Shown here: positions 1 to 3,000 of the stretch, piece after piece
Layout: each line of letters opens with the position of its first letter
Numbering within the stretch: the stretch's first letter is position 1
Origin: a virus
Lineage: Duplodnaviria > Heunggongvirae > Uroviricota > Caudoviricetes
IMG/VR virus record: IMGVR_UViG_2660238215_000004
Reading direction: 5' to 3' (one strand)
DNA: 6,764 nucleotides
Position numbers: made by a program

Positions 1-3000
1 TAATGATCTGGCAGCCTGAGTTCACAGATAAAATACTCTCCAGGAAACCCGGGGCGGTTCAAACTGCGCCGATTTTGGTTTCAAATACGCCGCCGTCCAG
101 CTCCCCAATAAATGCCTGCACATCAGTACTGCGTTCGCTAGCCATTTTGCTGCTCCTCATCATATCGACCCTGCAAGGTCGGTTGGTTTCTCCACAAAAC
201 GGAGAAGAACACCTGCGGTGGCTGCCGCCCGGATGGATTGGGTTATGAGCCCGTCGTCCGGTGATGCTCTTCTCTGTTTTGTAAAAAGAGCGGTACCAGC
301 CGGAAGCAAGGGTACAAACTGGTACCGCCAAAGCAGTGGCTGTTGTGGTGGGGTTGTCACTCAGGCGTATGGTCAACCTGACAATCCGGTGTCCTCAACG
401 GGGAAAGAGTAACCCCGCCATACTTACCGCCGCGCCATTTCGCGGATTACCACAACGCTGAGAGCACTTAGCCAGTTACGGCACCACACTTTGTCGCGGC
501 TCCATAAATGCCCTCATCGTTGCACCCTGGTCTCTTCCCAGGCGTCAAACCGAATCGCCACGCTGGTTAGGCGTCTTATCAGCATCATCATTGACTTGCA
601 CATTCCGGCTACCTGGTTTGTTTGCCCGAGCAAGGAGTGGATTGTCCCCTTTAACGTCCCCAGACCGCTAACGACGCATGTGCCATACGCCGTGTTACAA
701 CCAAATTTTGTTAGTACCTTGTTTGTTTGTCTGGAAAGAAAGATAAAATGAAGTTGCGCATTATGCAAGTGTTTTTGTTGCGAGATATGCAATTTAAAGG
801 GTAATGAAAAGCCACCTTTGGGTGGCTAATTGATGAGGAGGTAAGGGTTAATTGTGTCGCTTAAGGGTTTGTGACTGGCTGATTAAGACCTTTCCAAAGA
901 CCATAAACCGGTGTTCATTTTCGCTGGTAATTCCCCATTCACGGTAAATCTGGTTATCAGAAATCACCAGTAGTTTGTCAGGTATCATTTGCAGTCGTTT
1001 GACATAAATTTTATCATCAAAACCAAATACATAGATACCATCTCCATCAAACTGATTGATACTGACATCAACGAAGATGAGATCTCCTGGCTCAATGGTT
1101 GGACACATACTGTCCCCACGAACGTTGATAACTTTAATGTGATTGGCTGGCCGTCCGCCAAACATCGATACAGCATTATCAGTTCTGTATTCAATGGCAT
1201 GAATCACATCAATGACATCACCGCCCTGGATAAGGCCATTTCCCGCACTGGCACTGACATCCAGCATTTCAATACGGAATACATCCTTCACCTGCGCAAC
1301 ATCCTCACTAATACTGTTTTTACATACAGTATTACTTTTGAAGTCTGAGGTAAAGAGATCAGCAATATCAACACCTAAGCTCCTGGCAATATTACTCAGG
1401 GCTTGTTCAGTGAATTGTTTCTGCTTACCTGTTTCCAGGCGTGAGATATTCGCCGCATCCACTCCTATTGCTTCAGCGAGATCGGCGATTTTCATGTTCT
1501 TCGCCTGGCGAAGTTGTCTGACTCGGTTTCCTATGTTCATGCGTTTATTACATTTCTTTATTGCGCGTTAAGCAAATCAACTTGCGCAAAATATTTGCGT
1601 GAAATAATATGCTCATCACGCAATATGTGGAGGTCATATGCAATCACCATTACGGAATGTGCGTAAGGCGCACGGATTTACTTTGCAGCATGTTGCTGCT
1701 GGCGTTCAGGTCAATCCAGCGACGCTGAGTCGTATTGAAAGACTGGAACAAATTCCATCTATCGATCTTGCAGAACGTCTGGCCAATTTTTTTAAGGGTG
1801 AAATCAGCGAAATGCAGATTCTTTATCCGGCACGTTTTCAATCTAGCCAAAACCAGAATGGGTTTAAACCACAGGAACAGGAGGTAAGCCGTGGGTAATC
1901 ATCACTGGAAAGTGGAAAAACAGCCTGAGTGGTACGTGAAAGCTGTCAGAAAAACTATCGCGGCGTTGCCGGGGGGGTACGCTGAAGCTGCTGAGTGGCT
2001 GGATGTAACAGAGAACGCATTATTTAACCGCCTTCGTGCCGATGGCGATCAGATTTTCCCGCTGGGATGGGCAATGATTTTACAACGTGCTGGTGGCACT
2101 CACTTCATTGCTGACGCTGTGGCGCAGTCTGCAAATGGCGTCTTTGTGTCTCTTCCTGACGTCGAGGATGTGGACAATGCCGATATTAACCAGCGTTTAC
2201 TGGAAGTCATTGAACAGATCGGCAGTTATTCAAAACAGATTCGTTCGGCAATCGAAGACGGTGTAGTGGAACCGCATGAGAAGACAGCAATTAACGACGA
2301 GCTGTACCTCTCAATTTCGAAGCTGCAGGAGCATGCAGCACTTGTCTACAAAATTTTTTGCGTTTCAGAAAGTAATGACGCCCGCGAGTGTGCAGCTCCG
2401 GGCGTCGTGGCGTTTTGTGTCCGTGGAGAAACTAACGCATGAACAGTTTAACAACACACTACCGTCGCTCGCAACTGATTGCGCTTCCTGTACCGGGTGG
2501 AAAAGCGAAGGTGGAGTATTGCTATGCAGTAAATGTACCAGGTGACAGGGAAATTGTAACCCACAGCTTTGCTGAGTGGGCTGTGGGGGATTTCAACCGG
2601 CAGAAGGAGACAGTCCTTTGCGACAAGTTAACCGCTGGTTCAAAGATCACTACGGAGTGCCCGTCAGAGTCATTCGTTGGGAGCCGGAAACACAACGGGT
2701 TATCTACCTCCGTGAAGGCTATGAGCATGAGTGCTTCAGCCCGCTCGAACAGTTTCGTCGTAAATTCAGGGAAATAGAGGTCGGTCATGAGCACTAAATT
2801 AACCGGCTATGTATGGGATGGTTGCGCTGCGTCAGGCATGAAATTATCCAGCGTGGCAATTATGGCCCGCCTGGCTGATTTCAGTAATGACGAAGGTGTG
2901 TGCTGGCCATCAATTGAAACTATTGCCCGTCAGATTGGCGCGGGGATGAGTACCGTCAGAACGGCTATCGCACGGCTGGAAGCAGAAGGCTGGTTAACGC

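Follow-up and report, generated by a model that had tools for sequence, protein, structure and literature searches.

A LexA box inside the cI repressor gene of lambdoid prophages and a putative truncated repressor isoform that it may control

Introduction

CI-type repressors dimerise and cooperate through their C-terminal domain, and LexA-repressed antirepressors are known from several phages, such as Tum of coliphage 186, AntC of N15 and Coi of P1. SOS boxes that overlap -10 elements are also well known. Shorter proteins made from internal starts, which antagonise or modulate the full-length form, are represented by Inh of Tn5 and by the in-frame isoforms of the phiC31 repressor, and in IS10, a transposase mRNA that was started ahead of its proper promoter folds back, so that pairing with the added sequence conceals the ribosome site. 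To our knowledge none of these Tn5, phiC31 and IS10 systems is a LexA-gated headless CI-type repressor, and we know of no experimental link between them and prophage induction. In this article we analyse a LexA (SOS) box that lies inside the open reading frame (ORF) of the cI-type repressor gene in a stretch of viral DNA of 6,764 nt, or 6.8 kb (Caudoviricetes; IMG/VR record IMGVR_UViG_2660238215_000004). This stretch, called the window below, is the immunity and early-right region of a lambdoid Escherichia coli prophage.

The Gifsy prophages of Salmonella carry the LexA-repressed antirepressors GfoA and GftA (PMC3121763). As in such modules, induction at the present locus would be gated by LexA cleavage, instead of or besides RecA-stimulated repressor cleavage. 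In the Gifsy-type modules the SOS box stands at the promoter of a repressor-inactivating protein, whereas here the box is under selection and the promoter is a predicted one. Each antirepressor of the Gifsy type has a small gene of its own, which stands at a distance from the immunity region and has no sequence relation to the repressor. Our candidate is not a separate gene but is nested in cI: it would be an in-frame truncated repressor with its operator, promoter and ribosome site inside the repressor ORF, and the full-length repressor keeps an intact S24 catalytic dyad. The cI-nested element may therefore have a function like that of an antirepressor module while standing outside the known families.

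The proposed promoter resembles those of umuDC and sulA, with a -35 hexamer, 17 nt, TACTGT as the left half-site, and a ribosome site and start some tens of nucleotides downstream, but the umuDC and sulA promoters are intergenic. The proposed product is similar to UmuD in having an S24 fold with a short N-terminal arm that carries the cleavage site; the similarity of the cI C-terminal domain to UmuD is a distant one, and the domain is no close member of that family. The masking of a ribosome site by fold-back, as in IS10, is proposed here for the mRNA from promoter PRM. With lambda CI the repressor shares the helix-turn-helix (HTH) head, the linker, the Ala-Gly region and the S24 Ser-Lys domain, and cleavage of lambda-type CI yields a C-terminal fragment similar to the proposed isoform, which here would be synthesised directly under LexA control. 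We know of no LexA operator in the lambda cI ORF.

Among the full texts that could be searched, an incomplete set that leaves room for an earlier description, none described a truncated CI induced by SOS or placed an SOS box within the ORF of cI; nor did we find a report of a cI-nested SOS box in ST64B, SfII, mEp460 or phi1720a-02. An internal cI start is not discussed in a paper on Salmonella prophage transcriptomics, and a proteogenomics paper on strain SL1344 has nothing on prophage repressors.

The LexA box inside cI

The gene and its box have the following positions in the window:

848..1540, minus strand: cI-type repressor gene of 230 amino acids (ORF), with an HTH head, a variable linker and a C-terminal S24 (LexA-like) domain
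1312..1331, no strand: LexA (SOS) box TACTGTTTTTACATACAGTA, a perfect palindrome with 0 mismatches to TACTGT-N8-ACAGTA, in cI codons 70-77

The protein has the architecture of the LexA/CI-type self-cleaving repressors, with an N-terminal DNA-binding domain (Pfam HTH_3/HTH_26 at residues 4-64; HTH_3 1.1e-10) followed by a C-terminal S24 domain (Peptidase_S24 at residues 104-218; 6.5e-19). The Ser of GDSM and the Lys of VKRL are invariant and align with S119 and K156, the catalytic dyad of LexA. A SASAG motif, kept in all cI homologues, is likely the Ala-Gly cleavage region, equated by inspection with A84-G85 of LexA.

The box sits in the linker that joins the HTH, which extends to about residue 64, to the S24 domain, and on the coding strand it spells N70 (AAT), T71 (ACT), V72 (GTA), C73 (TGT), K74 (AAA), N75 (AAC), S76 (AGT) and I77 (ATT). 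The initial annotation of this DNA had described a perfect palindrome in the linker codons, with a negligible probability of chance occurrence, and both points hold: no base departs from the consensus, and at up to one mismatch the window has 2 sites (1312-1331 and 5633-5652) against 0.01 expected, a number that 0 of 200 shuffles reached, which excludes chance. In many relatives (cI of the SfII type) the box is TACTGTATATAAAAACAGTA, the umuD box of E. coli K-12 base for base. In Salmonella ST64B, the cI box is the only LexA box (at up to 2 mismatches) across 13.8 kb of the early region, and therefore the LexA input is attached there to cI itself.

To follow the box through evolution, homologous repressor genes were gathered from GTDB genomes and IMG/VR contigs, giving 119 unique sequences, reduced to 47 representatives below 95% nucleotide identity, most of them 62-71% identical to the window. 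The amino acids of the linker are hypervariable, with column entropies of 2-3 bits, and codons 70-76 follow the pattern nnT ACT GTA T(A/G/T)T nnn n(A/C)C AGT. Of 7 consecutive box codons, 6 have a third-position entropy of only 0-0.4 bits, against a gene-wide median of 1.38. Thr71 is ACT in 47/47 representatives (31% of Thr codons elsewhere in the same genes), Ser76 is AGT in 47/47 (16% elsewhere) and Val72 is GTA in 45/47 (18% elsewhere). At codon 75 the residue may be N, D, Y, H, S, T or P, yet the third base is always C and the middle one mostly A. The residues at codon 70 include T, S, N, P and I, and its last base is T in 44/47. The aligned codons indicate that amino acids change only where CTGT and CAGT stay intact. 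Among 49 neighbourhood representatives, ACTG and CAGT carry an information content of 2.0 bits and the AT-rich spacer one of 0.4-1.6 bits, the half-site-centred conservation with a variable spacer that would be expected of LexA contacts. Selection on the DNA, and not on the protein, is thus strongly supported as what keeps the box, in agreement with the earlier proposal that it is probably maintained in spite of the constraint on codon choice; the conservation goes beyond what the amino acids require.

Another cause than LexA could be imagined for this conservation: a linker motif T-V-Y/C-x-x-S, a joint of recombination between domain modules, or chance. Thr71, Val72 and Ser76 are indeed invariant as amino acids, and the site lies at the boundary of two domains, where mosaic exchange could occur. 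Against this, the synonymous positions are fixed (ACT, GTA, AGT) while background usage of these codons is 16-31%, and codons that change their amino acid keep the bases critical for LexA (codon 75 as NAC/NCC, codon 70 ending in T). Fixed half-sites around a variable spacer are the signature of LexA contacts, unlike that of a peptide motif or a recombination joint. Conservation at the protein level as the origin of the palindrome was therefore ruled out by the analysis of synonymous sites and codon identity, and we consider a cause unrelated to LexA extremely improbable.

The box is retained with 1-2 mismatches in the clade of Cronobacter phage ENT47670, at 50% amino acid identity, and is absent from the next relatives at 41-43% amino acid identity, namely HK639, the P22-like SE1, Turner and Providencia PSTCR7lys. 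We are highly confident that 1312-1331 is a selected LexA operator.

The window also encodes a protein that might itself read such a box:

4869..5195, plus strand: LexA DNA-binding-domain-only paralogue of 108 amino acids (PF01726, E 2.9e-19; phrog_362)

The presence of a truncated LexA paralogue had been noticed initially, and its Pfam match bears this out. It had also been suggested that the box is a target of this paralogue, which would shut off cI after lytic expression; in a stronger form of that reading the box is mainly such a target, for the shut-off of cI or of the nested transcript after early lytic expression. The recognition-helix residues R38, S39, N41, A42, A43, E45 and H46 are kept, identical to those of E. 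coli LexA, and from its place in the early-right operon the paralogue could bind any SOS box once the host LexA is cleaved. But the box is kept in loci L003-L007, where the paralogue is missing within 6 kb, and in ST64B, where it is missing across 13.8 kb; therefore the paralogue cannot be what maintains the box, and that part of the suggestion fails. A dependence of the box on either the paralogue or the KilA-N gene further to the right was rejected in the same way, several loci with a cI box having neither within 6 kb. We thus hold it very unlikely that the box serves mainly the paralogue, which may be a secondary ligand of the cI box in this phage.

A putative internal ribosome site and start codon

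About 25-30 nt downstream of the box stands a translation start signal in the frame of cI:

1302..1306, minus strand: internal Shine-Dalgarno (SD) sequence GAGGA, with an anti-SD duplex of -6.3 kcal/mol in the window clade
1289..1291, minus strand: in-frame internal start codon GTG (V84), in the arrangement GAGGA-N10-GTG

The initial annotation had pointed to this GTG (1291..1289) behind GAGGA (1306..1302), and both are present as described. Every codon column of the alignment was then scored for upstream anti-SD pairing and an in-frame ATG, GTG or TTG. Alignment column 87 comes first in the whole gene for SD strength, with a mean of -6.5 kcal/mol against a gene mean of -1.55 (standard deviation 1.74). 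A start codon is found there in 83% of the representatives, and a start codon together with an SD in 81%, which is also the top rank. This column lies inside a hypervariable stretch; the amino acids encoded by the SD vary (E/K/Q/S/D, then G/D/I/V/E) and GAGG, GGAG or AGGA is kept. In most other clades the start is a GTG or ATG at codon 87. The window clade has GTA at this codon, with its GTG at V84. A conserved SD with an in-frame start inside the ORF is what is found in genes with nested truncated isoforms.

The codon that precedes the motif [FY][RK]xxxLD is GTG in 121 and ATG in 10 of 172 box-bearing genes. Among the 51 box-less genes with Val at this codon, it is GTC in 24, GTA in 12, GTT in 11 and GTG in 4, so that the GTG preference is confined to box-bearing genes. 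After the neighbourhoods of ENT47670, HK639 and SE1 had been added, 295 unique genes were available: 163 have the box and the start signal, 9 the box alone, 17 the start signal alone and 106 neither. When the genes are clustered at 80% amino acid identity, the start signal occurs in 16/16 clusters with a box and is missing from 10/14 without one (Fisher p = 3e-5), counts that overstate the number of independent events, which is small, the box-bearing genes forming essentially one clade. The remaining 4/14 box-less clusters have weak start candidates at other codons. Box and start signal stayed paired down to 50% protein identity, and the box-less HK639, SE1, Turner and PSTCR7lys have neither.

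An internal start signal is present in some further genes. In L261-L264 and L267-L270 (IMG/VR; about 55% identity of the C-terminal domain) the boxes are degraded, with CTGG for CTGT or GTCAGT for ACAGT, and these genes keep a strong internal SD and a GTG or ATG despite the degraded boxes; the internal start may be less LexA-dependent in these lineages. In Citrobacter phage Omnitron (L212, 2174-2938), an unrelated N-terminal domain is fused to a related S24 domain (50% identity), and a strong SD (GGAGGGG) with an in-frame TTG/ATG precedes the C-terminal domain, without an SOS box. The box-bearing clade may therefore not be the only one in which an internal start precedes the S24 domain. The Omnitron match, found by tblastn with the C-terminal domain only, was rejected as a homologue of a free-standing isoform, since it proved to be a repressor of full length whose N-terminal domain is unrelated and whose gene lacks the box.

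Geometry and direction of the proposed promoter

The surroundings of the box were searched for promoters with a simple sigma-70 weight-matrix scan on both strands of 140 unique homologous neighbourhoods. The elements of the proposed sense promoter, read in the direction of cI, are:

1349..1354, minus strand: -35-like hexamer TTTACC (codons F63 T64), separated from the TACTGT downstream by 17 nt; in the RNA it also belongs to the anti-SD arm described in the next section
1326..1331, minus strand: proposed -10, the left half-site TACTGT of the box, the best-scoring promoter position on either strand
1319..1321, minus strand: predicted transcription start of a short SOS transcript, about 7 nt after the -10, from promoter geometry only

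The sense TACTGT has a mean score of 6.2 bits and reaches at least 4 bits in 92% of the sequences, against a background of -6.8 (standard deviation 3.0) over all positions. The -35-like position reads TTTACN or TTTATT in most clades, and no homologue has an indel between this hexamer and the box, while the linker further downstream does have indels. The upstream regions of umuD and sulA in E. coli K-12 present TTGATC-17-TACTGT followed by the remainder of the SOS box.

A palindrome can be used in either direction, and the box could also be the LexA operator of an antisense (rightward) promoter; once LexA is cleaved, its RNA, complementary to the 5' part of cI, would run through PRM and the operator region OR into cro, silencing cI and priming lytic transcription. 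On that strand the right half-site, TACAGT, scores as a -10 in 70% of the neighbourhoods (mean 5.0 bits), and the conserved A at box position 7 supplies the T of this hexamer, an A that is already predicted by the LexA consensus. What such a promoter lacks is a -35: none recurred at 16-18 nt on that strand. It would also leave unexplained the SD and start on the sense side of the box-bearing clades and the fold-back complementarity presented below, and we judge it improbable. The initial annotation had ranked both promoter variants as the weakest of its proposals. This ranking still suits the antisense variant, which has no consistent -35, but not the sense variant, which now has the most comparative support, with its conserved SD and start, the -35-like hexamer at 17 nt and the fold-back. 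From the sequence comparisons, a LexA-repressed sense promoter inside cI that would drive a headless C-terminal isoform is the best-supported mechanism.

Predicted fold-back masking of the internal start

In the long mRNA that starts at PRM, the internal start would be folded into a hairpin:

1283..1359, minus strand: predicted fold-back hairpin of the long (PRM) mRNA; its 5' arm AUC-CUUUACCUC-GAC-UC is paired to the region of the SD and GUG, and its tip is the LexA palindrome

For the long RNA of the window (1375 to 1275), the minimum free energy is -26.7 kcal/mol with z = -2.41. In this fold CUUUACCUC, the RNA version of the -35 region, is paired to GCAGGUGAAG, GUG included, and the SD is partly paired. 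The centroid structure of an RNA that starts at 1320 leaves both the SD and the GUG unpaired. Over 46 representatives, opening the start region costs 6.8 kcal/mol in the short RNA versus 11.0 in the long context; with a shuffled upstream part, in 24 of the 46, the cost is 8.7 kcal/mol (p = 0.003). The cognate pairing of upstream arm and start has -11.9 kcal/mol versus -9.8 for non-cognate pairs and was better in 5000/5000 permutations; a control segment taken further upstream pairs at -7.8 kcal/mol, weaker than the cognate one. In one clade a 16-bp inverted repeat flanks the box (-20.2 kcal/mol). We regard this evidence as supportive, not decisive.

A short RNA beginning at about 1320 would, because of its start point, be without the pairing sequence upstream of the box, and the fold-back layout appears sensible only if some transcripts begin between the two arms. 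This bears on the idea that LexA acts only as a roadblock or modulator of cI transcription from PRM, with no internal promoter and with the internal ribosome site, if used at all, read from the PRM mRNA. The site is near consensus and identical to that of umuDC in many relatives, so that a high occupancy is expected in uninduced cells, and at about 210 nt into the ORF it is on the path of RNA polymerase. Relief of the roadblock by SOS would nevertheless raise repressor synthesis just when the prophage should induce, a roadblock needs neither a fixed -35-like spacing nor a start signal downstream, and the fold-back calls for transcripts that start between its arms. Of the roadblock role put forward initially, a pure roadblock can thus be kept only as an unlikely possibility, and the co-conserved start signal is what it fails to explain.

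The putative headless isoform and the proposed mechanism

Translation from the internal start would produce the following protein:

848..1291, minus strand: proposed nested ORF of 147 amino acids, an isoform with the C-terminal domain only, which matches C-terminal parts of CI-like proteins in phrog_6201/phrog_4

The nested ORF begins 14 residues before SASAG and keeps the whole S24 domain with its Ser and Lys, without the HTH. Its product matches phrog_6201 (CI-like) at 6e-45, phrog_811 at 6e-8 and UmuD in the PDB at E 2.6e-4. That it exists as a separate protein of 147 amino acids we infer from the conserved internal start signal.

The sense-transcript mechanism would operate as follows. In a healthy lysogen LexA would occupy the box, in which TACTGT doubles as a -10, with TTTACC 17 nt upstream as a weak -35. 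DNA damage would destroy LexA, and transcription would then start within the box at about 1320. In the resulting short mRNA the SD (GAGGA) would be free, and from the GTG at V84 in the frame of cI (in most relatives, at codon 87) ribosomes would make the 147-amino-acid protein, composed of the cleavage-site region and the S24 oligomerisation domain and devoid of a DNA-binding head. In the long PRM mRNA, the ribosome site would be masked by pairing with the sequence upstream of the internal start, and therefore the short protein would be made mainly from the SOS transcript. Most likely the headless subunits would form mixed oligomers with the full-length repressor that bind the operators more weakly, so that this built-in antirepressor would add a LexA-gated step to prophage induction.

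Several points weigh against this reading. The promoter is weak by consensus, with 7/12 matches (the count is equal for umuDC and sulA), and because of these 7/12 matches a generic promoter scan with a threshold of 9/12 found nothing at the box, a threshold that umuDC and sulA would also fail. The comparison with those two promoters takes their TTGATC hexamers as the functional -35 and TACTGT as the true -10. The ENT47670 clade has a poor -35-like hexamer, TTCTCT, and the conservation of the hexamer in general is accounted for by the conserved Phe-Thr and codon bias and is not independent evidence. The invariant TTT of Phe63 was accordingly discarded as independent support for a -35, other Phe columns being TTT in 42-46/47 and TTT making up 71% of Phe codons. 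Codon 87 of the window clade is GTA, and its alternative, GTG84, stands 10 nt from the SD, a long spacing; with the box-bearing genes in essentially one clade, few independent events stand behind the pairing of box and start. Concerning the fold-back, RNAalifold on the neighbourhood recovered nothing beyond the trivial hairpin that the palindrome forms by itself; there was no consensus fold-back helix and there were no covarying pairs, and therefore the evidence for it lies in the duplex energies of individual sequences with their permutation controls; a purine-rich SD and pyrimidine-rich Phe-Thr-Ser/Pro codons will moreover pair somewhat by default. Finally, the dominant-negative role is an analogy and not a result.

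Taking the two sides together, we lean slightly towards the box controlling an internal sense transcript that is translated from the conserved internal start. That the isoform acts as a dominant-negative antirepressor is, by analogy, a tentative proposal with less than even chances. The sequences themselves show the box, the selection on its DNA, the start signal conserved along with it and the complementarity of the fold-back arms. The least certain step is what the isoform would do; LexA binding, promoter activity and the very existence of the isoform are also deduced steps. A decoy for RecA*, cleavage in trans or a UmuD-like activity would be other possible roles for it. In its complete form, the proposal is that this cI family represents two genes in one: the C-terminal two-thirds would be a nested, in-frame SOS gene with its own operator, promoter, ribosome site and start, silenced by fold-back in the lysogenic mRNA, and its product a headless, LexA-gated antirepressor that would commit the prophage only after strong SOS. 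We put this forward as possible, and as somewhat short of an even bet.

Other features of the window and distribution of the module

Around cI, the window has the organisation of a lambdoid immunity region:

753..792, no strand: OL-like operators GTTGCGCATTATGCAA and GTTGCGAGATATGCAA, of repeat family D1, common to OR
810..827, minus strand: terminator-like hairpin directly 3' of the cI stop, which would end both the long and the short transcripts
1559..1625, no strand: OR region, flanked by cI and cro and containing the operator-like TTGCG..GCAA repeats (repeat family D1, inverted repeat I1)
1631..1604, minus strand: candidate PRM, a promoter-like site
1638..1898, rightward: cro
5633..5652, no strand: second LexA box TACTGTATTTATGAACAGTG, with 1 mismatch, about 100 nt upstream of the KilA-N gene
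5750..6565, plus strand: KilA-N gene (Pfam KilA-N match; phrog_129)

After cro, the rightward order is a CII-like gene, DUF4222, an O-like replication gene, a PerC-like gene, Dam, the gene for the LexA DNA-binding domain alone, RusA and KilA-N. The LexA paralogue, between Dam and RusA in the early-right operon, consists of the LexA DNA-binding domain with a tail of about 40 amino acids and no S24 domain, and phrog_362 is a common phage family. It could be an uncleavable LexA mimic that represses SOS boxes again after induction, including those of competing prophages. The second box has a -35-like TTTGGG-17 or TTGGGT-16 ahead of TACTGT, a layout similar to that of the cI box, and together with the KilA-N gene it looks like a LexA-controlled antirepressor of the Gifsy style. 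The KilA-N homologues of relatives are often without a box; in L001 and ST64B (60-68% identity) none is found at up to 2 mismatches.

Four tandem units of 15 nt (TCTGACCCGTCAAAA; a super-repeat of 30 nt) at 3096-3159 on the plus strand, inside the O-like gene (2787-3728), resemble the origin iterons embedded in lambda O. On the minus strand, downstream of OL/PL, about 600 nt of the window (about 150-745) separate this region from the next convincing leftward gene, which starts near 146-154 (MASERSTDVQ...). The interval 150-745 has no ORF with a solid family match, no recognisable N gene and no Rfam match even at E<=1. It could conceivably be a long leader with a structured RNA, or an antitermination element that acts as RNA; Rfam gave nothing in the window at gathering scores and nothing at E<=1 in 1-860. 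A sequence resembling an operator half-site, GTTGCGCAG on the cI strand (compare GTTGCGCAT of OL), lies at 1290-1303, overlapping the nucleotides that separate the internal SD from GTG84. It occurs in the window clade only, without a second half-site, and is probably due to chance.

Strain MS7163 is a 100% match across cI-cro of the window, and the cI-cro module is present at 90% identity or more in 1040/5426 complete E. coli genomes, about a fifth. It is also found in phages PhiR63_1, 1720a-02, mEp460, Stx2a_1447/WGPS2, phiSTEC1575-Stx2k and SfII, and the repressor gene is annotated as cI in PhiR63_1, mEp460, Stx2a_1447 and SfII. Salmonella ST64B has the module at 76% identity, and remoter relatives occur in Klebsiella, Citrobacter, Cronobacter and other enterics.

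Implications for prophage induction

Prophage induction sets the release of Shiga toxin, the spread of serotype-converting and virulence phages, and the response of lysogens to DNA-damaging antibiotics. If the proposed mechanism is true, it would constitute a third wiring of a prophage to the SOS response, neither that of lambda, with a RecA-cleaved repressor alone, nor that of Gifsy, with a separate LexA-controlled antirepressor, and it would apply to a sizeable group of prophages in enterobacteria, among them the Stx2-converting phages, SfII and ST64B. It would explain why a perfect operator is kept in a coding sequence, as part of a regulated nested gene with fold-back control of its translation. 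In these lysogens lexA(Ind-) alleles, inhibitors of LexA cleavage and the LexA mimics of competing phages could then alter induction independently of RecA-mediated repressor cleavage.

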